NCBI GenBank assembly: GCA_018401695.1 | Contig: JAGYKD010000002.1 | Location: 238,636-302,635 of the forward strand | From: Flavobacteriales bacterium | GTDB taxonomy: Bacteria > Bacteroidota > Bacteroidia > CAIKAF01 | Length of the DNA stretch: 64,000 bases | Direction of reading: 5' to 3' | Part shown: in pieces, positions 5,721 through 60,739 of the stretch | Position numbering within the stretch: the first letter of the stretch is position 1 | How the letters are laid out: every line of letters starts with the position of its first letter | Notes under the pieces: generated by a model | Seen by the model: the letters and a program-made list of their open reading frames with translations, nothing else | Database searches by the model: none | What the model was told of the DNA's origin: nothing | Translations under genes and position numbers: made by a program

Positions 5721-7742
5721 ATGCACTGGTTTAAACGTTTCATAAAACCTTGGATGTTGTTTCTAGTCGCAGCATTGGCCATTACGCTTCTGTTGCCCAA
5801 CCAGGTTTTTTTCCAATACGAGTATCAAGTGGGGCGCCCTTGGATGCATCAAAAACTCGATGCGCCCTTTGATTTTGCTATTCAAAAGACCAAAAGGGAA
5901 CAGAACCAACAAAGAGAAGCACTTAAAAAAGCCCAATGGGTGGTTTTACGTGTGGACAGTGCTGCCGAAAAACGCGTCAAAGAGGCCTGGCAAGCGGTAT
6001 TGTTGAATTACGCGGCACAGCTTTCTGAAGTTCAAAGGGAAGCATTGCAAATGGGAGCCGACAGTCTGTTTGAACGAGGCATTCATGCCCAATCGCAAAC
6101 GCAATTTCCGGTCGAAGTGGTCCATGTATTGTTCCCGAATCAGGAGCTTCGTACCCGATTAAAAGAACGCATGGTATCTCTTTCCGAAGCTGCCGAATGG
6201 CCCGGAAAGTGGCCTTCTACTCTTGACAGCATGGTTCTATTGGACCTAAAGCAGGCTTGGCAACAAAGTCTAGAGCCCAATTTGTATCCGGATATTTCTT
6301 GGAGCGAGCGACTTAAAGAGCGGACCTTGGATGCTCTTCCCGGATTCCGTGGCCTAATTCTGGAAGGAGAACTGGTGATTGACCAAGGCGAAATGGTGAC
6401 TCCCGAACGTTTTCGAGTGCTCAATAGTTTGAGGTCCGCCTATCAAGAAAGGGAAGCCACAGCCCTGCAGCGGCTTGGAACCTTTGCCGGGCAATGCTTG
6501 TTTGTCTCCATTTGGGTAGCCTTTCTTTTTGCCTACTTTAAGGTTTTTAGAAAGCTTTGGTTAAGACAGCCCAGACGCATTGGGGCGCTGCTTGCTTTGC
6601 TTTGTTTTCATGTAGCTTTGGCTCGCTTGGCCATTGAAACTCCCGGTGGCCATATTTATATGGCTCCGGCCATTATGTTTCCGATTCTTGTTCGGGCCTT
6701 GTTTGATAGCCGGACGGCCATTTTTTCCTTGTTTACCTTTGTGCTGATTTGCGGTTATTTTGCCCCCAACAGCTTTGAGTACGTCCTGCTTCAATTTGCC
6801 GGTGGGTTAATTGCTGTTTTTTCTTTCCGTAAATTCAGAAAACGGGCCCAACTCTTTTCCATTATTGGTATGTTGTTGGTGGTGTGGTCTTTTTTAAACC
6901 TTACCCTTCATTTGTTGCGTACCGGTACTTTGCTGGGGCTGGATTGGTATCCTTTTCTTTGTTTTGGCATCTCCGGGGTGGCCACCTTGTTCACCTTTGC
7001 CTTGGTATTCATTACCGAAAAGCTCTTTGGTTTCCATAGCGACTTCACCCTATTGGAATTGTCGGATATGAACAATCCCCTGCTCAAGAAATTATCCCAA
7101 AAAGCCCCGGGTACCTTTCAGCACAGCATTCAAGTGGCCAATTTGGCCGAAGCCGCCGCCGAAAAAACAGGGGGCAACAGCCTATTGGTCCATACCGCCG
7201 CCTTATACCACGATATCGGAAAGCTCAAACAACCCGGCTTTTTTATCGAAAACATGATGGGCGAACGCTCTCCTCACGAAGTTTTAAGTTTTGAGCAAAG
7301 CGCAGAAATCATCATTCAACATGTAGAAGAAGGGGTGGCATTAGCTAAAAAACACAAACTTCCCGAAGTGTTGATCGATTTTATTCGAACCCACCACGGG
7401 ACCTCCACCGTGCAGTACTTTTACCGAAACTACTTGAAAGCTTTTCCGGAAGACAAGGAAGTTCGTGCACGTTTTTCTTACCCCGGCCCCAAACCTTACA
7501 GCAAGGAAACCGGCATATTAATGATGGCAGATTCGGTAGAGGCTGCCTCAAGAAGCTTAAAAGAAAAAACGCCCGAAGCCCTGGAGCAGTTGGTCGACAA
7601 GGTACTGGACCACCAACTCCGGGAAGGACAATTGGATCATTGCGACTTAACCTTAGCCGAAATACGAATCATTCGCAAAGTGTTTAAGGAAAAGCTAATG
7701 AATATGTACCATCAACGCATCGAATATCCGGAGCATTCCTGA
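5721..7742 (+). CDS. 7TM receptor with intracellular HD hydrolase domain (HDIG phosphohydrolase, YqfF-like)
   Basis: Multiple TM helices followed by an HD motif (LLVHTAALYHDIGK). Confidence 0.75.
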   Translation: MHWFKRFIKPWMLFLVAALAITLLLPNQVFFQYEYQVGRPWMHQKLDAPFDFAIQKTKREQNQQREALKKAQWVVLRVDSAAEKRVKEAWQAVLLNYAAQLSEVQREALQMGADSLFERGIHAQSQTQFPVEVVHVLFPNQELRTRLKERMVSLSEAAEWPGKWPSTLDSMVLLDLKQAWQQSLEPNLYPDISWSERLKERTLDALPGFRGLILEGELVIDQGEMVTPERFRVLNSLRSAYQEREATALQRLGTFAGQCLFVSIWVAFLFAYFKVFRKLWLRQPRRIGALLALLCFHVALARLAIETPGGHIYMAPAIMFPILVRALFDSRTAIFSLFTFVLICGYFAPNSFEYVLLQFAGGLIAVFSFRKFRKRAQLFSIIGMLLVVWSFLNLTLHLLRTGTLLGLDWYPFLCFGISGVATLFTFALVFITEKLFGFHSDFTLLELSDMNNPLLKKLSQKAPGTFQHSIQVANLAEAAAEKTGGNSLLVHTAALYHDIGKLKQPGFFIENMMGERSPHEVLSFEQSAEIIIQHVEEGVALAKKHKLPEVLIDFIRTHHGTSTVQYFYRNYLKAFPEDKEVRARFSYPGPKPYSKETGILMMADSVEAASRSLKEKTPEALEQLVDKVLDHQLREGQLDHCDLTLAEIRIIRKVFKEKLMNMYHQRIEYPEHS

Positions 7743-51273: not shown

Positions 51274-51394
51274 GTCTACCCTTTAAAAAGCTGCCCGACC
51301 CATAAAAATGTACGATGGGTTATTTGGGCGCCTAATCCGTCTCCGGCCATTAGCTGCCTTGTGGGCTAGCTACGCCGCTAAGCGTAGGCAAGGA

Positions 51395-51535
51395 GCTTCC
51401 TCTGGTCGCTCTTGCCTCCGCAGCGGCTGAGCAGCCCACATCGTCAGGCTAATTGGCCTGCGCCGGGGCGCGTTAAGCTCCGTGTGTATTTTTTTTGAAT
51501 GATGGCCCACAGTTGAAACCGTGGGCGGTAGTGCG
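51395..51535 (+). repeat. ~140 bp direct repeat, copy 1 (…GGTCGCTCTTGCC…CGTCAGGCTAATTGGCCTGCGCCGGGGCGCGTTAAGCTCCGTGTG…GTTGAAACCGTGGGC)
   Basis: About 85% identical to 51985-52123. Confidence 0.8.
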
Positions 51536-51699: not shown

Positions 51700-51985
51700 C
51701 TGGCGCAGTTTAAACCGTGGGCTATGGTTTAACCATTGATAATTTCGCCGTTAAATAAACACCTGGGGATTCTATTCTTTCGAGAATTTTAAACCGTTAA
51801 AACGGTTGGCCGGACACGGCATTTCATATAGCCCACGGTTTAAACCGTGGGCTATGGTTTAACCATTGATAATTTCGCCGTTAAATAAACACCTAGGGAT
51901 TCTATTCTTTCGAGAATTTTAAACCGTTAAAACGGTTGGTCCGGACTCGGCATTTCATATAGCCCACGGTTTAAACCGTGGGCTT
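51700..51985 (+). repeat. tandem repeat, ~130 bp unit x2.2, each unit starting with perfect palindrome GCCCACGGTTTAAACCGTGGGC
   Basis: Units at about 51709-51838 and 51839-51969 differ by roughly three substitutions and one indel. A third partial unit follows. Confidence 0.85.
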
Positions 51986-52123
51986 CCTGTGGTCGCTCTT
52001 GGCCGGGCGGCTGCTGAGCACTCTATTTCGTCAGGCTAATTGGCCTGCGCCGGGGCGCGTTACGCTCCGTGTGGATTTTTTTTGAATGATGGCCCACGGT
52101 TGAAACCGTGGGCTATGATTTCA
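51985..52123 (+). repeat. ~140 bp direct repeat, copy 2
   Basis: Matches 51395-51535. Confidence 0.8.
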
Positions 52124-52150
52124 ACCGTGGGTTAAACATCGGTCAACAAG

Positions 52151-52303
52151 AATGCAACGCTTCATTTGCTGAGGCATTGCTATTCGACGCAATTGCTTGA
52201 GGCGGATGTCGATTTGCGGGTCATACAGGAGTTGCTTGGGCATAAGAGAAGATAGACAACAGAGATTTGCACACATGTTAGCAACCGGCTGCTTCAACTG
52301 GTT
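52151..52303 (+). pseudogene. tyrosine recombinase (integrase) C-terminal remnant
   Basis: Translates to …[50 protein letters not shown]. The canonical R-HxxR…LLGH…Y block has a premature stop and Cys in place of the catalytic Tyr. No upstream ORF. Confidence 0.7.
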
Positions 52304-52465
52304 GGTTCACCTTTCAATGACTTGTGAAAACTACTTATATTAGCAAAGGGTAATCGAATGAGGTAAACCATCACTTAGCCTACCATTGAGGGTGGATAAA
52401 TGAGGTTCAACCTCATTTATAAAGGAGTTGGGGCACATGCTAAAATGAACTAAGAACAAAACGAC

Positions 52466-52828
52466 ATGCTTGAATTTATATTAGGATTAACATCGGACAT
52501 TATTTCAAATTCGACTTCACTATCAAAAAAAGACAAGGACACTGTCCATAATGAAGTAACGTATGCATTGAACCAGACACGGACACACATCAGAAACACC
52601 AGACAGGGGAATACAGATCAACCATCTTCTCATTTATCCAATGTTTGGCAAAGAACAGGCAGGCGACTTAGACAAATTGGGCATACCGAAGTCCAAGGTC
52701 TTGCGGACACCATTGAGCAAAAAAGCAAATACTGGTCAGACCCTACTGACTATGATTTACAGAACTTAGACCAGTATGAAATGCGACTAACCCAAGTTGA
52801 AAGTAAATTGAATGAACTCTGCTCATGA
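52466..52828 (+). CDS. hypothetical protein (120 aa)
   Basis: ORF with ATGA coupling to the next gene. No recognisable motifs. Confidence 0.4.
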   Translation: MLEFILGLTSDIISNSTSLSKKDKDTVHNEVTYALNQTRTHIRNTRQGNTDQPSSHLSNVWQRTGRRLRQIGHTEVQGLADTIEQKSKYWSDPTDYDLQNLDQYEMRLTQVESKLNELCS

Positions 52829-53649
52829 AAAGGATTATTGCTACAATATCGTTTATGTACCTTGTTTCCATACCGACAATTGCCCAAAGCGACACAGTTA
52901 CTGTTCAGAAACTGGATAAAATTGAAAAGACGTTAAATGAAATTGCTCAACAACTTACCAATCAAAAAAGTGACTCATTAATTGTCTCCGTAGAGCACTT
53001 TGAGAAGTTGACAAATAGACTTCAAAAAAATGATAGCATCTGGCCTGACATTCTTCCTTCGTTGATTGCAATTTTCGTTGTATTGATATCCACTGGCGGA
53101 GCAATCTTCATTGGAGTTAGACAGATTAGAACTCAAACGACAAATGCGGAAGAGCAAATTAGAAGCCAAGAAGCGCAAGCACAAGATAACCTTCAGGTTG
53201 CTCGAGAACAAATTCAAGAGACATCGAGAATGACCTTGGCACAAGTAAGGGCAAACAATATTTCACAAGCACGAATTAACTGGATACAGGATTTAAGAAA
53301 TGAACTGAGTCAGTTTAATGGAGAAGTCGCAATAATTAACTTTTATCTTCATGATGTGGTGGAGTTGACAAAAGAGGGAAATAAGAAAAAAGCAGAAGAA
53401 TTATACAATCAACAAGTTGAGAGGATAAAAACCGCAAGACAATTAGCATTCAAAATCAAACTTTTTCTGAACAAAGGCGAAACAGACCATAAGAAACTTG
53501 AAGTTTTAATTAACGACTACTACACTTCCGCTCTTGAAACCTTTTCAAAAGTGAAGTCCGACTTTAATAAAGTAAGCAATGACATTCTGGATATTTCAAG
53601 AAAAATACTTAAAGACGCATGGGAACAGGCAAAAAATGAAGGAACATAA
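52825..53649 (+). CDS. hypothetical membrane-anchored coiled-coil protein (274 aa)
   Basis: N-terminal signal-like segment, one internal TM helix (LPSLIAIFVVLISTGGAIFIGV) and long heptad-like Q/E/K-rich stretches. Confidence 0.45.
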   Translation: MKRIIATISFMYLVSIPTIAQSDTVTVQKLDKIEKTLNEIAQQLTNQKSDSLIVSVEHFEKLTNRLQKNDSIWPDILPSLIAIFVVLISTGGAIFIGVRQIRTQTTNAEEQIRSQEAQAQDNLQVAREQIQETSRMTLAQVRANNISQARINWIQDLRNELSQFNGEVAIINFYLHDVVELTKEGNKKKAEELYNQQVERIKTARQLAFKIKLFLNKGETDHKKLEVLINDYYTSALETFSKVKSDFNKVSNDILDISRKILKDAWEQAKNEGT

Positions 53650-53894
53650 AGAACAAAAAGCACGATGCCCCAACAGCGCATATAGCTTATGGCGGGTGAC
53701 GGGATAAATTCAAGGTTTTCGGCACGTAGCAAAGTTTGTCATTGGGGACAGTTAAGTGCTCTAAAAACCGCCACAAGCCATATGCGCAAAACGTTAGCGT
53801 TCATTAGTGTGACGAGTTAACAGCGAAATTATACTTTTGACGGAGCGGTTTCCGAAAGGCCAAACGAGTAGTAATAATTAAAAAACAAAAAAAT

Positions 53895-54383
53895 ATGACA
53901 AAGAACAAGTCAATACCCATTTTGCTCCTCACAGCAGGAGTTCTTTGGGCGGGCCTCACACAAGCTCAGGAATCTGCCAATGCCTCCGGTGGTGATGCTA
54001 CAGGAAGCGGAGGTACTGTTGCTTACAGCGTTGGACAAGTGCTTTACACCTCCAATACAGGAAGCGGAGGAACTGTTGACCAAGGCGTGCAACATGCCTA
54101 CGAAATTTTCACGGTTGGTATAAAGAAAACAGAACTTAACATTTCGCTCACCGTATTTCCGAACCCAACAACAGAAAATTTAACCTTGCAAATAAGCGAT
54201 TACACCAACGAAAAGTTGTCGTATCAGTTATTTGATATGCAGGGAAAACAACTAAGCAAAGGGCAAATAGTAGCACAGCAAACACAAATAAACATTAATG
54301 GTCTGCCCTCCGCTACTTACTTCATTCATGTTGTAAACCAAGAAGACAAAAAAGTTCAATCATTCAAAATCATCAAAAACTAA
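53895..54383 (+). CDS. small secreted protein with T9SS C-terminal sorting domain
   Basis: Signal peptide. C-terminal …LTVFPNPTTENLTLQI…YFIHVVNQEDKKVQSFKIIKN. Confidence 0.6.
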   Translation: MTKNKSIPILLLTAGVLWAGLTQAQESANASGGDATGSGGTVAYSVGQVLYTSNTGSGGTVDQGVQHAYEIFTVGIKKTELNISLTVFPNPTTENLTLQISDYTNEKLSYQLFDMQGKQLSKGQIVAQQTQININGLPSATYFIHVVNQEDKKVQSFKIIKN

Positions 54384-54389
54384 ATAATC

Positions 54390-55274
54390 ATGAAAAGGAT
54401 AATTTCAATATGTGCAGCATTACTAATGACAGCAAGCGTGTTTGCCCAAGCACCCGAGAAAATAAGCTATCAAGCAGTTGTGCGTGACGGAAGTAATACT
54501 TTAGTTACGTCCTCCGCAGTAGGTATGCAAATAAGCATTTTACAAGGTTCATCAAGTGGAACGGCAGTGTACGTAGAAACGCAAACACCTACTTCTAATG
54601 CCAATGGTTTGGTAAGCATTGAAATTGGAGCAGGAACAATTGTAAGCGGGGGCTTTACCGCTATTGACTGGGCAAATGGACCGTATTTTATTAAAACAGA
54701 AACCGATCCGACAGGAGGGACAAATTACACCATTACAGGTATAAGCCAACTTTTAAGTGTGCCTTATGCCTTACATGCGAAAACGGCAGAAACAGTGTCA
54801 GGAGGAAAGGATTTTTATTTAGGACAAGATACGCTTGGTGGTATTGTATTTTATATTTATTTGGATGCGAATGGAGTACAACGTGGACTTATTTTAAATA
54901 AAAACGAAAGTACGGCACAATGGCAAGGCACCGGCACAACAACCAATGCTACACGCAGTTGGGATGGTGCTTACAATACAGGGTTAATGGCAAATAGCCC
55001 TGCTGCTAATTATGTGAATAGTTTAACAGATGGTGGATTTACAGACTGGTATTTACCTTCAGTTGACGAGTTAAGTATTTTATGGAACAACCGCTTTCAC
55101 GCTAATAATGCCCTAAATGCTGGAGGCTATACATTATTGTCAAGCGGCGCTTCCTATTGGAGTAGTACAGAGGGTAGTGCGGCGATCGCATTCCGCTTCG
55201 CCTTCAACGACGGTTACGCACTTAACACCAATAAGATTAATATTCATAGCGTGCGTGCCGTTCGGGCATTTTAA
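54390..55274 (+). CDS. secreted DUF1566 (Lcl C-terminal-like) domain protein
   Basis: Signal peptide and a …TDWYLPSVDELSILWNN… motif typical of DUF1566. Confidence 0.5.
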   Translation: MKRIISICAALLMTASVFAQAPEKISYQAVVRDGSNTLVTSSAVGMQISILQGSSSGTAVYVETQTPTSNANGLVSIEIGAGTIVSGGFTAIDWANGPYFIKTETDPTGGTNYTITGISQLLSVPYALHAKTAETVSGGKDFYLGQDTLGGIVFYIYLDANGVQRGLILNKNESTAQWQGTGTTTNATRSWDGAYNTGLMANSPAANYVNSLTDGGFTDWYLPSVDELSILWNNRFHANNALNAGGYTLLSSGASYWSSTEGSAAIAFRFAFNDGYALNTNKINIHSVRAVRAF

Positions 55275-55626
55275 CCATTTATCAATTTAATACCCTGAAG
55301 CGGTAGATTTTTGAAAATTAATGGCTCTGTATTACGAATTACCAGTTTTTAAGCTCGTATTGATTTTTGGTTATACCAAAGATTTTCCGCCAGAGTATAA
55401 ACATACGCTTGGGCAAGACAATAAATGAGACAACATACAACTAGTAAGGATTATATATATAGCCAATACATCGAACGCAAATAACAAACGCACCGCAAAC
55501 ATTTAGCCGATTAGCAGAAAAGCCCTGCCAAAATGCCTGAATGACCTTTTGTCTTTGTAAGCATCCGACCAACCCCATATTCCCCACCTCAAAATCCCCC
55601 CACAGCTTTGGGCAAAACAAAAAATT

Positions 55627-55842
55627 ATGTCCAAAAGCAATCAAAAACGTGAAGCCATGTTAGCTCTGATAGCGGAGTGGCGCCAAAACGGAGAAACCTA
55701 GGTACATTTTACTACCAAAAATGAAATCTCTTTCGCTAAATTTCAAAACTGGGTGCGCAAAAGCAAGGCTACCGCTGCACCGGAGGGTTCTTTGGAATTT
55801 CCGCTGCCAAGTGGATGTTCCGAAGATACTGCCCCCTGTTAA
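55627..55842 (+). pseudogene. transposase OrfA-like HTH protein remnant with in-frame amber stop
   Basis: MSKSNQKREAMLALIAEWRQNGET*VHFTTKNEISFAKFQNWVRKSK… The TAG at 55699-55701 interrupts a frame resembling IS3/IS66 accessory HTH proteins (F..W.RK). Confidence 0.3.
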
Positions 55843-56184
55843 GGCCATCTTGAACCAGGTGTGTCCTTTTGATTTGGCCTACAGGGCTTTGTTAACTTTT
55901 TAACGGCTTGCTATAAACCAATCAAAAGTGGTATTTTAGACTGGGAAATGGGGTAAGAACGGGGTTATTAGACGAACTGACGTTAGCAGCAACCCCAAAA
56001 AACAGATAATAAAAAATCGCGCAATGGCAATTTTCACACCACGTCGCCTAAAAATCAGATTAAGAAAAGACGAGGCCTTTACCTATATCGCGAGACTTCA
56101 CCCGAAGTTTTCTGCGTTCCAAGTTTAAAAACAGTTGAAGGAGTTGAGTTACTCCCAAGTACATTTTGAGACAGATGGATCGGT

Positions 56185-57111
56185 ATGAACAAAGGTGAAA
56201 TAGAAATATATAAAAGTGAAACCGGCACTGAGGTACAAGTCAAACTGGAAAAAGAAACGCTATGGCTTACCCAGAGACAAATGGCTGAGCTGTTCGAAAA
56301 AGATGCAGACACCATTGGGCTGCACCTCAAAAACATATACAGTGTTAAAGAGCTAGAGGAAAATACAACTACCGAGGATTACTCGGTAGTTCGGCCCGAA
56401 GGGAAAAGAATGGTTCGAAGAACCATCAAACACTATAACCTGGATGCCATTATATCAATAGGGTATCGAGTAAATTCCAAAAGAGGTACTCAATTCCGCA
56501 TCTGGGCTACCCAACGCTTAAAAGATTATCTGGTGCAGGGCTACGCAATCAATGAAAAACGATTGCAGCAAAAAGAGATGGAGGTGCAGCATTTGAAAAC
56601 AGGCATTCACATTTTAGGCAGAGCTATTGAGGAGAAAGCTGGAGAACAAGGGCATGAATGGCTGGTACACTACGCTAAAGGACTTGAGCTTCTAGATGAC
56701 TACGATCATGAAAATCTGGATAAACTCGGCAAGAGCAAGCAAGCAGCGGTTTATCCTGCCAAAGAAGAATACCACAAACTGATCCATCAAATGAAGATCG
56801 ATTTTGATTCAGCCCTGTTTGGGGTTGAAAAAGACCAAAGCTTTGATAGTGCCATAGCCCAAATAGCCCAAGGATTTGGCCATGAAGACATCTATCCTAC
56901 CTTAGAAGAAAAAGCGGCTATGCTGCTCTATCTTATCACCAAAAATCATGCTTTTGCCGATGGCAACAAACGCATTGCCGCAGCCTGTTTTCTTTTATTT
57001 TTAGACCGAAACCACTTACTGACGAATACCCGTAATGACCAAATTATTAGCCATGAAGCCTTGGCTAGCCTAACGCTATTTGTGGCAAGCAGTAGGCCTG
57101 AAGAAATGTAG
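56185..57111 (+). CDS. RhuM-family protein with Fic/Doc motif (HxFxDGNKR)
   Basis: The N-terminus (IEIYKSETGTEVQVKLEKETLWLTQRQMAELF) is the RhuM signature. C-terminal HAFADGNKRIAA is the Doc/Fic catalytic motif. Confidence 0.75.
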   Translation: MNKGEIEIYKSETGTEVQVKLEKETLWLTQRQMAELFEKDADTIGLHLKNIYSVKELEENTTTEDYSVVRPEGKRMVRRTIKHYNLDAIISIGYRVNSKRGTQFRIWATQRLKDYLVQGYAINEKRLQQKEMEVQHLKTGIHILGRAIEEKAGEQGHEWLVHYAKGLELLDDYDHENLDKLGKSKQAAVYPAKEEYHKLIHQMKIDFDSALFGVEKDQSFDSAIAQIAQGFGHEDIYPTLEEKAAMLLYLITKNHAFADGNKRIAAACFLLFLDRNHLLTNTRNDQIISHEALASLTLFVASSRPEEM

Positions 57112-57152
57112 GCTGTAAAAGGATTAATTATTAGTGTATTAAATAGAAATCA

Positions 57153-57257
57153 ATGAGCAACGAATCAAGCATTGTTTCAAAAGTTTGGTGTTTCGCAAGC
57201 GTACTCCGCGACGATGTGCACTCCTCTTTCTTCGTGGCCGGTATGTATTCCTTGTGA
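57153..57257 (+). pseudogene. N-terminal stub of an HsdM-type (type I R-M) methyltransferase
   Basis: MSNESSIVSKVWCFASVLRDDVHSSFFVAGMYSL* matches the conserved HsdM N-terminal helix (…KLW.FCN.LRDDGV…). It is truncated after 34 aa. Confidence 0.4.
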
Positions 57258-57500
57258 GTTGCTCTCCGGCAGAGCACACTTCCACTTCAATACTGACACT
57301 GCCAAGGTCTCAACTATTTTTTATATTTTCAACATGTCTAGTTTAGGGGAAGCCCACAAGAACAATGTTGGTAGAATCACCATATTTATTAACTATGCAC
57401 CAAACCAGTCTTAATGTTTTGTAACCCATGGAAAAACCAAAAGTAAACGAACTCGATAAAGCATATAAAAGATGCCGAAAAATTATTAAATTTTGAGGGT

Positions 57501-57830
57501 ATGAGTGAGATCAAAAATATTGTAGAAAAGCTGATTGCATTTAGAGATGAAAGAGATTGGGCTCAGTTTCATAATCCCAAAGATTTGGCCATTGCTTTAA
57601 ATATTGAGGCAGGAGAACTGCTTGAAGCATTTCTTTGGAAAGGCCCAGAAGATGCGGATATTGAAAAAGTAAAAGAAGAATTAGCCGATGTGTTTGCCTA
57701 CGCTTTTTTGATTGCCGATAAATATAAGTTTGATGTTGTCGAAATTGTTACAACAAAAATTAAAGAAAATGGGGAGAAATATCCTGTGAGTAAAGCTAAG
57801 GGATCTGCGAAGAAATATAATGAATTATGA
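57501..57830 (+). CDS. MazG-like nucleotide pyrophosphohydrolase (small all-alpha NTP-PPase)
   Basis: 109 aa. EAGELLEAFLWK and EELADVFAYAFLIA motifs. ATGA overlap with the downstream gene. Confidence 0.7.
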   Translation: MSEIKNIVEKLIAFRDERDWAQFHNPKDLAIALNIEAGELLEAFLWKGPEDADIEKVKEELADVFAYAFLIADKYKFDVVEIVTTKIKENGEKYPVSKAKGSAKKYNEL

Positions 57831-60031
57831 ATCCCATAGGCGAAATTGTTATTGACTTAAATCGATACCCTTTTTCAAAAAACGCACTTGCCGAAATTTC
57901 AGAAAATAAATGGGTTAAAACTCAATGGCCCTTGGTGTATCTAATAAAAAACGACAAAACCAAAGTGGCGTATGTTGGAGAGACGACCAATGCGTTTAAT
58001 AGAATTAAAAACCATTTTGCTAACGAAGACCGTTTGGTTCTAGATACCATTACATTAATCGGATCCGATCGTTTTAACAAGTCTGCTACCCTTGATATCG
58101 AGTCTCAACTCATTCAATATTTGTCGGCAGAAAACACCTATAAACTTCAAAATGGAAATGGTGGACTAACCCACCACAATTACTACGAAAAGCCTTTCTA
58201 TCGAGATATTTTCAAAGAGATATGGGCACGACTAAAGAGTGAAAAATTAGTTAGCAAGTCGCTAGAGGAAATCGAAAATTCGGATTTGTTTAAATACTCT
58301 CCCTACAAAGCGCTTTCCGATGATCAAAGAGCCTCAGTAATGAAGATTATTCATACGCTAAACAACCAGAACCATCCGAGTATTTTTGTGGAAGGTAGTG
58401 CGGGAACTGGTAAGACCATTCTTGCAACTTACTTGATGAAGCTTTTACATTCACCTCTGCCAGCTGCTGACGAGATAGAAGATTTAGAAGGATACCGTTT
58501 GGAGGAGTATCGATTGCTTGAATTATTTCGCCAAAAGTTTAAAGATGCAACTATTGGTTTGGTTGTGCCTATGACCTCCTTACGCAAAAGTCTTAAAACT
58601 GTATTTGGTGCAATTGGTGGGCTTAAAAGGAGTATGGTTATTGGTCCTTCGGATGCGGTTGAAAAAGAATACGACATCCTAATTGTTGATGAAGCTCATC
58701 GGTTAGCTCAACGTAAAAATATTCCGAATTATGGGTCTTTTGATGCCATAAACCGCTCCTTGGGATTAGGAATTGAAGGCACTCAGCTTGATTGGATAAT
58801 CCGAAGTAGTAAGCACCAGATATTTTTTTACGATGAAGCGCAATCGATTAAGCCCTCCGATATCCCTAAGGAAAGGTTTAACGAATTAAAACGCCAATCA
58901 GCAAAACCCATCAAGCTTACTTCTCAAATGCGGGTTTCGGCGGGTTCCGACTATATCAATTTTGTAGACCGCTTGTTGAAATGTCAACCTCTCGATGATT
59001 TGACCATTCCCGAGAATTATGACTTTAGGTTGTTTACATCTTTCAAAGAATTTCATAATGAGATTATTATTAAAGAAAATGAACTGGGATTGAGTCGCCT
59101 CATTGCCGGGTATTCGTGGCCTTGGATTTCAAAAAGCGATAAAAGCTTGTATGACATTGAAATCGAAGGGACGAAATTGCAATGGAACAAGGTGAACGTA
59201 GATTGGATTAACTCCGCCGATCCGAAAGTGGAAGTAGGTTGTATTCATACTACGCAAGGGTATGACTTAAACTATGCCGGGATTATCTTTGGCAAAGAAA
59301 TAACCTACAATAAAAAACTGAATCGAATAGAAATTATCAGAAAAAACTACCACGATAGAAATGGAAGCGCAGGGATTAATGATGATGAGCGTTTGAAAGA
59401 ATATGTTGTCAATATTTATAAGACCATTATGTATCGGGGGATTAAAGGAACTTTGGTTTATGCTTGCAATCCGGAATTAAGGGACTATTTGGCTGCTTAT
59501 ATTAAACATGAAACATGGGAAAGAGGCGCAACCTCTGTAGAAAAAGAATCATTTTTTAGAGTCTTGGATTTCGAAAAGGTGCTGCCTTACCAAAACGCAA
59601 TTCCCTTGGTTGATATACAAGCCGCTGCAGGAAATTTTAGCGAAAACCAACAGCATTCGGAATTAACATGGGTTGAAATTCCCGATGGATTAAGGGTGAG
59701 TGAAGGCGATTTTATTTGCCAAGTTATTGGCGAATCCATGAATAAACGCATTCCAAATGGATCTTTTTGCCTATTCAAACCATATTCGGGTGGATCACGA
59801 AATGGTAAAATCGTATTAGTTGAGTCAACTAGTATACAAGATTCAGAATTTGGTTCAGGATATACGGTAAAAGAATACCACAGCATAAAAAAAAATTCTG
59901 ATAGCGGTTGGAGTCATGAGTCAATTGTATTAAAACCGCTATCGACTGATGGAGAATACTCAAATATTGTTTTACAAAAAGATGAATTGGTGGATTTTAG
60001 GGTTGTCGGAGTATTCGAGAGAGTAATCTAA
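57827..60031 (+). CDS. GIY-YIG nuclease-like / Schlafen-like (DUF2075) P-loop ATPase with C-terminal LexA-type S24 autopeptidase domain
   Basis: N-terminal VYLIKN…AYVGETTN…R..NH (GIY-YIG). Walker A at GSAGTGKT and a DEAH box at ILIVDEAHRL. C-terminal PLVDIQAAAGNF (Ala-Gly site), GESM (Ser) and TVKEY (Lys) in LexA/UmuD spacing. Confidence 0.7.
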   Translation: MNPIGEIVIDLNRYPFSKNALAEISENKWVKTQWPLVYLIKNDKTKVAYVGETTNAFNRIKNHFANEDRLVLDTITLIGSDRFNKSATLDIESQLIQYLSAENTYKLQNGNGGLTHHNYYEKPFYRDIFKEIWARLKSEKLVSKSLEEIENSDLFKYSPYKALSDDQRASVMKIIHTLNNQNHPSIFVEGSAGTGKTILATYLMKLLHSPLPAADEIEDLEGYRLEEYRLLELFRQKFKDATIGLVVPMTSLRKSLKTVFGAIGGLKRSMVIGPSDAVEKEYDILIVDEAHRLAQRKNIPNYGSFDAINRSLGLGIEGTQLDWIIRSSKHQIFFYDEAQSIKPSDIPKERFNELKRQSAKPIKLTSQMRVSAGSDYINFVDRLLKCQPLDDLTIPENYDFRLFTSFKEFHNEIIIKENELGLSRLIAGYSWPWISKSDKSLYDIEIEGTKLQWNKVNVDWINSADPKVEVGCIHTTQGYDLNYAGIIFGKEITYNKKLNRIEIIRKNYHDRNGSAGINDDERLKEYVVNIYKTIMYRGIKGTLVYACNPELRDYLAAYIKHETWERGATSVEKESFFRVLDFEKVLPYQNAIPLVDIQAAAGNFSENQQHSELTWVEIPDGLRVSEGDFICQVIGESMNKRIPNGSFCLFKPYSGGSRNGKIVLVESTSIQDSEFGSGYTVKEYHSIKKNSDSGWSHESIVLKPLSTDGEYSNIVLQKDELVDFRVVGVFERVI

Positions 60032-60216
60032 TTGCTATTTAATAGCCAAAAACCTTTTGTTCTAACCCAATGGCCTTTAGTGGCCAGCCAAAACGGGACA
60101 ACAAACACCAAGTGCATAAATTTGAGACAAATTCAAGCACTAAAGAACTTTGAATTTGGGCTTTAACCTGAGAGAATGGCTAAGTCCATTCCATTACTCG
60201 GCCAACAAACCCTAGG

Positions 60217-60365
60217 CCACGGTTGAAACCGTGGGCTATGTGAAATGCCGAGGCAGGGCCAACCGTTTTAACGGTTTAAAAATCTTGAAAAAAGGAATCC
60301 CCGCGGTTTTGTTTAATTGCCAAATCATCCATGGTTAAACCATAGCCCCAGGTTTCAACGGCGTT
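60217..60365 (-). repeat. inverted copy of the 130 bp repeat unit plus CCACGGTTGAAACCGTGGG palindrome
   Basis: The reverse complement aligns with 51709-51838 over most of its length. Additional CCACGG/CCGTGG palindromes lie at 60395-60480. Confidence 0.75.
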
Positions 60366-60739
60366 TATGAAATGGGAAATGGATGCATCCATTGCATTAG
60401 CACGGTAAATAGCCGTGGGCTGCGATACATACTTTCTATTCCTAGGTAAACTGCCCACAACCCAGGGTTGTGCCCGTGGGATTAATTGGCAAAGAAATGC
60501 TGGGGGCCCAGAAGGCGGCTTTGCCATGTTTTGCGGGCTGCGGCATAGGCCATAATAAATTTTAATTTGCTTTGGGAGGGACCTCCGTCAAAAATAAGGT
60601 GCTTATGAAATGCGGAGTTTGAAGAGGAAAGGTGTGTCATACGCTAGGTTTAATTGCTGTATCCGTGAAGGAGCTGTTGAGACTCGCTACTAAACCATAA
60701 CGCAGGGACAGGGACCTTAGTATATAGGCGCTTAAAAAA

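Follow-up and report, generated by a model that had tools for sequence, protein, structure and literature searches.

What kind of mobile DNA leaves the tail of a tyrosine recombinase gene, several intact genes and the debris of other elements between two core genes? This question is raised by an AT-rich interval (positions 52136 to 60206) in a 64-kb stretch of contig JAGYKD010000002.1 from a Flavobacteriales bacterium, hereafter called the window. A previous sequence-only reading had described this interval as an old integrative island, the mobility genes of which had been inactivated while its cargo, in part of defence type, was retained. Our best explanation, to which we assign a probability of roughly 60%, is that the left third of the interval (52136 to 55560) is a dead integron-like platform and that the rest is a composite patchwork. 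An AT-rich island in decay that carries defence genes is nothing unusual in itself; less usual is the family to which the recombinase belongs.

An insertion between a transporter gene and a sigma factor gene

The interval harbors seven intact genes, which share one strand (+) with the recombinase remnant. Its GC content is 0.35 to 0.45 (52250 to 60250), compared to 0.53 to 0.58 in the left flank (48.5 to 51.5 kb) and about 0.47 over the whole window, and climbs again beyond 60.3 kb. Similarly, the GC content at third codon positions (GC3) is 0.26 to 0.42 in the seven interval genes versus 0.51 to 0.68 in the flanking genes, and the tetranucleotide distance to the rest of the window, computed in 4-kb windows, reaches 0.30 to 0.36 inside the interval, over a background of 0.13 to 0.18 and at most 0.25 where windows overlap the flanks. 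Composition is not uniform, and the earlier claim that the interval is more AT-rich than its surroundings is confirmed. Where contigs of the public run SRR14300309 overlap the window, they show no difference from it; they stop at 51280 and 60097. No tRNA or tmRNA was found within the 64-kb window, and Rfam at gathering thresholds gave no match over the same sequence.

For an empty-site comparison, the DASS transporter encoded to the left of the interval was scanned against species-representative genomes. Two metagenome-assembled genomes (MAGs; L003 and L004) encode an 88% identical protein, all others sharing at most 47% identity. In these two MAGs, the transporter gene is followed after 0.65 and 1.1 kb, respectively, by the gene of an extracytoplasmic function (ECF) sigma factor (196 amino acids [aa], on the strand opposite to the transporter), and nothing there matches 52.1 to 60.2 kb. 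Beyond the sigma gene, their gene order is that of the window (a transglutaminase-like gene, RNase Y, ZapA). In the window itself, the two genes are 9.5 kb apart and homology to the MAGs restarts at about 60484. Since two related MAGs have the transporter and ECF sigma genes only 0.65 to 1.1 kb apart, the interval is an insertion, that is, horizontally acquired DNA between these two genes. The empty site that the sequence-only reading had proposed to look for at this place thus exists in L003 and L004.

The reverse scenario, an ancestral region deleted in the lineage of the two MAGs, is scarcely credible. It draws on the fact that only two relatives are available and that these are close to each other. 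However, the GC3 difference and the mobile-element debris speak against it, as does the DUF2075 protein of the interval, which is 84 to 87% identical across families, compared to at most 47% for the neighboring core gene outside the clade.

Two further observations concern the MAGs. Upstream of the ECF sigma gene, a block (60484 to 60640) is conserved in L003 (11440 to 11600) and L004 (12230 to 12400); it could be a 52-aa minus-strand open reading frame (ORF) or a regulatory leader and has no family match. Additionally, L003 (CAZJFM010000010.1) is titled "Candidatus Competibacteraceae", a gammaproteobacterial family, yet is syntenic with, and in its gene order almost identical to, the Bacteroidia MAG L004 and the window, and is probably mis-binned.

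The recombinase family and its intact loci

The remnant at the left end of the interval matches Pfam Phage_integrase (1.9e-10) and the NCBIfam models of integron integrase (1e-15) and XerD (4e-15). An integrase C terminus with an in-frame stop and a catalytic tyrosine replaced by cysteine had been noted before, and the sequence is indeed present exactly as then quoted. N-terminal pieces of the recombinase were searched for across the 64-kb window and none was found.

Relatives were gathered by an exhaustive representative search with a near-identical fragment of the tail. They are 345 to 470 aa long, are 60 to 69% identical over the tail and carry Phage_int_SAM_4 and Phage_integrase domains. 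The remnant is 59 to 67% identical to the final 61 to 63 residues of the full-length relatives, which keep the tyrosine at the position of the cysteine. The family comprises about 8,000 proteins (>7,900), typically 347 aa long and highly conserved, with members in Flavobacterium, Chryseobacterium, Sphingobacteriales and Chlorobi-group bacteria.

These relatives score about equally on archaeal XerA and integron-integrase models. On TIGR02249 they reach 199 to 229 bits (cut-off, 265), with a gap at model positions ~180 to 255 between two matching stretches. The best solved relative of the closest full-length recombinases (P0150 and similar proteins) is VchIntIA/IntI4 (2a3v; E = 9e-43), to which they align in two pieces; at the place of the IntI-specific insertion they have 23 residues, compared to 65 in IntI4 (about 42 missing). 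Because 23 residues replace 65 in this alignment, the relatives are without the insertion (I2) that defines integron integrases; in the window remnant, the corresponding region is deleted. The IntI-specific insertion is reported to be necessary for IntI activity.

Intact members of the family lie beside variable gene arrays. Identical genes of one recombinase (P0273) occur in four metagenome samples (L154 to L157), where the loci are 99.8 to 100% identical over 7507 nucleotides (nt) comprising conserved sugar-metabolism genes and the recombinase, up to ...AGCTAGTTA. The alleles diverge from the next base after GTTA, 90 nt past the recombinase stop (position 7507), and four different series of small genes follow, all on the recombinase strand. 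Two of the four series rejoin at a GTT boundary, ...AAAAC(C)/GTTGGCAGCAAG. One unit of L154 (8129 to 10445) consists of four genes and ends in a hairpin site; its 5' end, GTTGGCAGCA, is complementary to TGCTGCCAAC at its own hairpin, the first bases of which are CTGCTGCCAAC. Such complementary ends are the signature that would be expected of a circular cassette opened at the GTT core.

A second recombinase (P0389; loci L160 to L165) adjoins dnaX and an isocitrate/isopropylmalate dehydrogenase gene. Here, the point at which one allele diverges lies exactly behind CACAAGTTA, 78 nt downstream of the recombinase stop, and several assemblies or contigs break just past the recombinase gene. In the intact loci, the recombinase gene has a fixed position in the chromosome, and the co-oriented array downstream of it, joined at a GTT core, is variable.

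The sites between the units of these arrays are 136 to 140 nt long and consist of ..GCYAAC, an A, a 10-bp stem, a second stem, a loop, the returning stems, AAAAC and GTTRG. When seven sites of this length were aligned (the window site together with those of the L154 to L156 arrays), 14 of the 22 pairs showed compensatory changes. In the intact loci, the family behaves like an integron integrase, though it is without the supposedly essential insertion.

These relatives bear directly on the alternative that the interval is a classical integrative island, which arrived in one event by means of its own tyrosine integrase, at an att site between core genes, and decayed later. The empty site, the atypical composition and the recombinase remnant at one border would fit such an element. 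However, the window has no tRNA and the flanks lack att-type direct repeats, the sole sequence that they share being an inverted repeat, resembling repetitive extragenic palindromic (REP) elements, that is common elsewhere. Furthermore, the interior holds fragments of at least three unrelated elements, and the relatives of the remnant are IntI/Xer-like recombinases beside variable arrays rather than island integrases. We consider a classical island improbable. What stands of the sequence-only reading is the insertion, supported by the empty site, the dead genes and the intact, partly defence-type cargo; its view of the recombinase as the integrase of an integrative island is not supported. The likeness to genomic or defence islands with decayed integrases (atypical composition, absence from relatives, defence-type genes, dead mobility genes) is real, but the interval differs from them in having no att repeats, no tRNA target, another recombinase family and a patchwork interior.

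In L155, an apparent secondary-site event truncates an M48 peptidase gene at ...GAAGCGA/AAACGTTAGCGG. Decayed remnants of the C terminus of recombinases of this family also occur in L050 (8413 to 8616, minus strand) and L105 (10640 to 10830, minus strand), in both cases ahead of small co-oriented genes. The fragment of L050 starts directly after a hairpin repeat, GGTCTTAGCG...CGCTAAGAC, with REP palindromes 2 kb upstream.

Hairpin sites and probable cassettes in the window

The window contains one complete site of the same family as those of the intact arrays (Table 1). It begins 16 nt past the stop of the second of two overlapping ORFs and is an inverted repeat with DNA fold z-scores of -3.3 and -3.4. 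A covariance model (R2) was built from six array sites, none of them from the window, and used to scan the whole window with filters off. It matched 53665 to 53802 on the plus strand over the full model length with 42.8 bits (E = 9e-9), the next match in the window reaching 10.8 bits. As judged by the alignment and by R2, the sites are structure-conserved hairpins with AAC/GTT ends. A generic scan for AAC-stem-loop-stem-GTT hairpins had proved unspecific, with 4 to 12 matches per 64 kb of shuffled sequence, and covariance models were preferred.

A 7-mer between the remnant and the first ORF, GTTGGGG at 52427, is the exact reverse complement of CCCCAAC at 53668; it occurs three times in the 64 kb. 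The same arrangement is seen in L029, a metagenome contig of another organism, in which GTTGGGC lies 103 nt past the stop of a recombinase tail and GCCCAAC opens the hairpin after the next gene, which encodes a protein sorted by the type IX secretion system (T9SS). By this analogy, GTTGGGG would be the attI of the window.

Two cassettes can be delimited in the window, at 52428 to 53793 and 53794 to ~55560. The complete site ends in AAAACGTTAGCG, and the start of the second cassette, TTAGCGTTCATT, is similar to TTAGCGGTCATT, with which cassettes begin in L153 and L155. The second cassette ends in a truncated site, the homology of which to the L029 site stops after 65 nt, and an IS66 fragment starts 67 nt later; CGCAAAC at 55494 is one base off the complement of GTTAGCG. 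R2 gave no match over 577 kb of other metagenome loci. Since it finds no further sites, the L029-type site and the truncated site at 55494 form a different sub-family, of which there are 1.5 examples.

From the intact loci and these remains, we infer that the array of the window was assembled by the same recombination mechanism. An IntI/Xer-like recombinase at a fixed chromosomal site would read towards a GTT-core site some 80 to 100 nt past its stop, where new gene cassettes would be joined, each ending in a folded site of about 130 nt (..YAAC, stem, variable loop, stem, AAAAC, GTTR). The recombinase of the window would then have lost all but its last 61 codons at a junction with REP-like repeats, and the remaining tail would later have gained a stop codon and the Tyr-to-Cys replacement. 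Two cassettes would have stayed behind in a frozen state, one with an intact site and the other with a site cut in half. The IS66 fragment probably marks the break of the platform. To the right of it lie an intact RhuM-Fic gene, a probable type I methylase stub and a MazG plus GIY-YIG/DUF2075/S24 module that moves alone among Bacteroidota.

Several points weigh against this explanation. The attI of the window depends on a 7-mer picked after the fact, and the window has a single complete hairpin site. Two thirds of the interval are unprovable as cassettes, because no site-like bounds are found at RhuM-Fic or MazG/DUF2075. Cassettes with two or four genes exceed the typical size of integron cassettes, and the empty-site comparison relies on two related genomes, both at 88% identity. 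The recombinase family is without the integron-defining insertion required for activity, and recombination by its members is deduced from the arrangement of their loci. Finally, the truncated recombinase tail recurs in L029, where it adjoins the same repeats but different cargo. Because of this, the tail could be part of a repeated, non-autonomous unit and not the relic of a platform that fell into decay at this site. Indeed, the window and L029 share the junction of repeat element A, palindrome, half palindrome and recombinase tail, which would mean either that the truncation is old and shared or that the composite is itself a repeated unit.

The closest known systems are sedentary chromosomal integrons and clusters of attC sites lacking integron integrases (CALIN) with intI pseudogenes (Cury et al. 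2016, PMC4889954; Neron et al. 2022, PMC9024848). As in these, a tyrosine recombinase at a fixed locus has an adjacent GTT-core insertion point, the co-oriented genes lie between imperfect hairpins with AAC/GTT ends that are complementary within a cassette, the stems are conserved in structure and not in sequence, and strains differ in the content of the array. It is also known that such systems can decay until an array is left beside a recombinase pseudogene, as in the window, and in the "inverted" group of integrons the recombinase gene likewise points the same way as the cassettes. Unlike integron integrases, however, this recombinase family is without the IntI-specific insertion. Moreover, its sites have a one-sided spacer of 4 to 5 nt (AAAAC) in place of demonstrated extrahelical bases, and its cassettes hold up to four genes each.

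Surveys with IntegronFinder have reported next to no integrons from Bacteroidetes (PMC9024848), and we found no description of integron-like arrays in Flavobacteriales or Cytophagales in the literature. The platform is of a kind hardly described in Bacteroidota. A bolder extension, in which our confidence falls well short of even, is that Bacteroidota and Chlorobi-group bacteria carry a widespread cassette-capture system that standard integron tools miss and of which the window may be a dead example. Equally tentatively, this system would combine a recombinase of 345 to 470 aa without the IntI insertion, co-directed with its cassettes, with a GTT core 80 to 100 nt past the stop and a hairpin of about 130 nt with an AAAAC spacer. 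If true, integron-type gene capture does not need the insertion thought to define integron integrases. Confirmation would extend such capture to Bacteroidota, offer a natural test of hairpin-site recognition without the I2 helix and provide a new recombination-site model to locate cassette arrays and their cargo, such as defence genes and T9SS-secreted proteins.

The right two thirds of the interval and the flanking repeats

Table 1. Features of the AT-rich interval and its borders, by position in the window
Feature	Position	Strand	Description
Repeat element A, copy 1	51325-51526	+	~115-nt GC-rich imperfect hairpin (51345-51458), second GC hairpin, T-run, palindrome (51506-51525)
Unit B, two tandem copies	51708-51984		~130-nt repeats resembling REPIN or miniature inverted-repeat transposable elements (MITEs), bounded by palindrome ATAGCCCACGGTTTAAACCGTGGGCTAT; palindromes at 51832 and 51963
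Repeat element A, copy 2 (partial)	51982-52134	+	Palindrome (52093-52112) and half palindrome (52119-52134); abuts recombinase remnant
Recombinase pseudogene	52136-52327	+	Last ~61 codons of an IntI/Xer-like tyrosine recombinase; in-frame TAG, catalytic Tyr replaced by Cys
Candidate attI-type core	52427-52433	+	GTTGGGG; 99 nt past remnant stop, 39 nt before first ORF
Putative cassette 1	52428-53793	+	Two overlapping ORFs and hairpin site; limits predicted from GTT cores
ORF (120 aa)	52466-52828	+	No family matches
ORF (274 aa)	52825-53649	+	Predicted membrane protein; no family matches
attC-like site	53665-53802	+	138 nt; CCCCAAC, A, 20-bp imperfect stem, 72 nt, stem, AAAAC, GTTAGCG
Putative cassette 2	53794-55560	+	T9SS-sorted protein, Lcl_C protein, bAvd-like pseudogene, 5' half of second attC-like site
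T9SS C-terminal-domain protein	53895-54383	+	Pfam/NCBIfam
Lcl_C/DUF1566 protein	54390-55274	+	Pfam/NCBIfam
Four-helix-bundle (bAvd/23S rRNA intervening sequence [IVS]-type) pseudogene	~55312-55480	+	Three in-frame stops; weak Pfam bAvd match (E = 0.018)
Truncated second attC-like site	55494-55560	+	~88% identical to left half of L029 site
IS66-family TnpA (accessory protein) remnant	55627-55842	+	NF047593, 32.1 bits (cut-off, 28), E = 1.2e-7
RhuM + Fic/DOC fusion	56185-57111	+	308 aa, intact; Pfam RhuM 6e-27, Fic 2e-11
Probable HsdM N-terminal stub	57153-57257	+	34 codons; tblastn only
MazG-like pyrophosphatase	57501-57830	+	Intact; Pfam
GIY-YIG + SLFN-g3/DUF2075 helicase + S24 peptidase protein	57827-60031	+	Intact; Pfam
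Unit B, one inverted copy	60207-60363	-	Palindrome (60216-60235); REP-like debris to ~60483

To the right of the truncated site, the interval changes in character. The transposase-like ORF with a single amber codon reported earlier proved to be a fragment of an IS66 TnpA, in which codon 25 is a TAG. It is a remnant and not an IS66 element, with no reading frame for tnpB or tnpC behind it. The proposed 34-aa HsdM stub is supported but not proven: it is too short for hidden Markov models (HMMs), and HMM and PDB searches gave no match, but tblastn against plasmids returned weak matches (E = 0.5 to 6). Of these matches, 15 of 21 were listed; all 15 lie on residues 1 to 21, 14 of them in genes of type I-style N6 DNA methyltransferases and one in an unannotated stretch.

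Pfam, NCBIfam and PADLOC matches bear out the claim that the RhuM-Doc/Fic, MazG-like, DUF2075-S24 and T9SS genes are intact, and a defence function of part of this cargo may be suspected from these matches. The RhuM-Fic protein matches PADLOC PDC-S23 (PDLC04965), which is a candidate family only, from end to end (3e-120; residues 1 to 308 on profile positions 1 to 312 of 327). Its homologues are annotated as "virulence protein RhuM/Fic/DOC family" and are plasmid-borne, beside Tn3 and IS66 elements.

The MazG-like and GIY-YIG/DUF2075/S24 genes overlap by 4 nt and form a two-gene module (57501 to 60031). The same gene pair is found in Marivirga, Indibacter and an ENA contig (L150, 9675 to 12208; L151, 8044 to 10574; L152, 9675 to 12214) with 84 to 87% aa and 78 to 83% nt identity, in three different neighborhoods. 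Nucleotide homology to these copies is confined to 57480 to 60056. Because the neighborhoods differ and the homology stays within these limits, the module spreads horizontally alone. In the three other genomes it does not lie beside recombinases or hairpin sites of the kind described above. PADLOC 2.0.0 has no named system with the GIY-YIG, DUF2075 and S24 architecture and a MazG-like partner, and the module gave weak matches to Nhi (1.7e-11), AbiO (4.8e-10) and PDC-S14; the DUF2075 helicase core is only weakly alike to helicase-nuclease defence proteins of the Nhi and AbiO type. The pair is a widely transferred module outside the named PADLOC 2.0.0 defence systems.

RecA-stimulated self-cleavage is suggested by features of the S24 part that were recognized by eye, namely a LexA-like AAG cleavage region (PLVDIQAAAGNF), the serine of GESM and the lysine of TVKEY. 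A short ORF (57429 to 57497; MEKPKVNELDKAYKRCRKIIKF) lies just upstream of the MazG-like gene. L151 has a called gene of 108 aa at this place, and L150 and L152 share similar sequence there. Since homology to the genomes with the module begins only ~20 nt ahead of the start codon of the MazG-like gene, the window may have lost a third partner gene.

Could the entire interval be one cassette array, in which RhuM-Fic, the methylase stub and MazG/DUF2075 were captured too and their sites have eroded or belong to unrecognized families? Every gene is on the plus strand downstream of the remnant, and the GC content is uniformly low. Chromosomal integrons reportedly serve as stores of defence systems (bioRxiv 10.1101/2024.07.02.601686), a Vibrio plasmid has a RhuM/Fic gene within a co-oriented array of small genes, and secondary-site events occur in related arrays. 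Nevertheless, inverted-repeat, hairpin and R2 scans revealed no hairpin site or GTT/AAC-bounded structure to the right of 55560, the module occurs elsewhere away from such recombinases and sites, and neither the methylase stub nor the IS66 fragment is cassette-like. We regard a single array as unlikely. The interval is a composite of integron-like, IS66 and probable type I restriction-modification remnants with a separate module, and its parts may have arrived in more than one event.

As the sequence-only reading had stated, both ends of the interval abut members of one repeat family, which is evident from a palindrome and from inverted copies of unit B. The palindrome CCCACGGTTKAAACCGTGGG (up to 3 mismatches) occurs five times in the 64 kb (51506, 51832, 51963, 52093 and 60216), all at the two interval ends, with none expected by shuffling. 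The two copies of element A form a direct repeat, 51982 to 52113 being 89% identical to the first copy. The element has fold z-scores of -5.0 (+) and -7.6 (-) and is 83% identical over 208 nt to L029 (63 to 265). Many unrelated metagenome contigs contain sites with ~80% identity to a segment of about 65 to 70 nt of unit B.

The palindrome family, a 28-nt perfect palindrome (ATAGCCCACGGTTKMAACCGTGGGCTAT) usually found as ATAG-CCCACGGTTKMAACCGTGGG-CTAT, occurs in at least 120 metagenome contigs (L030 to L149) with a GC content of 0.32 to 0.65. Copies are single, in inverted doublets ~100 nt apart or in tandem arrays with a period of 62 nt or ~130 nt. Among the matches listed, 126 of 144 copies lie outside long ORFs, and only two contigs hold a relative of the recombinase, both decayed. 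Because the family is common and mostly far from any integrase, the palindrome is no mark of island termini, and we read the flanking repeats as generic, REP/MITE-like intergenic palindromes. Like REP, REPIN and MITE palindromes, they are mostly intergenic and occur as singles, doublets and arrays in many genomes. They differ in a wider GC span than is usual for REP families. We found no description of the palindrome sequence in the literature. The palindrome or unit B was also considered as an attC-type site, being ~130 nt long with AAC...GTT ends; this was rejected as the main reading, since the R2 score is at most 9.8 bits and the palindrome lies in ordinary intergenic regions of many contigs with no arrays or recombinases nearby.

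The inverted copies of unit B (51.7 to 52.0 and 60.2 to 60.4 kb) could also be taken for the ends of a composite MITE-bounded transposable unit. They form inverted repeats of 97 nt with 82% complementarity, and within the 64 kb the palindrome is confined to the two interval ends. However, no transposase partner is present, no target-site duplication was seen, and many organisms carry single copies of the repeats in ordinary intergenic regions, which makes such a unit very improbable. In addition, the intergenic space of L003 and L004 holds another hairpin repeat, GTAAAGACGGGATGCCTCCCGTCTC, unrelated to those of the window; because these relatives carry a different repeat at the same spot, it is apparently a place prone to collect hairpin repeats. 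A permissive Rfam scan of 51.2 to 52.5 kb placed Acido-Lenti-1 on the palindromes with a sub-threshold score (24 bits; cut-off, 37).

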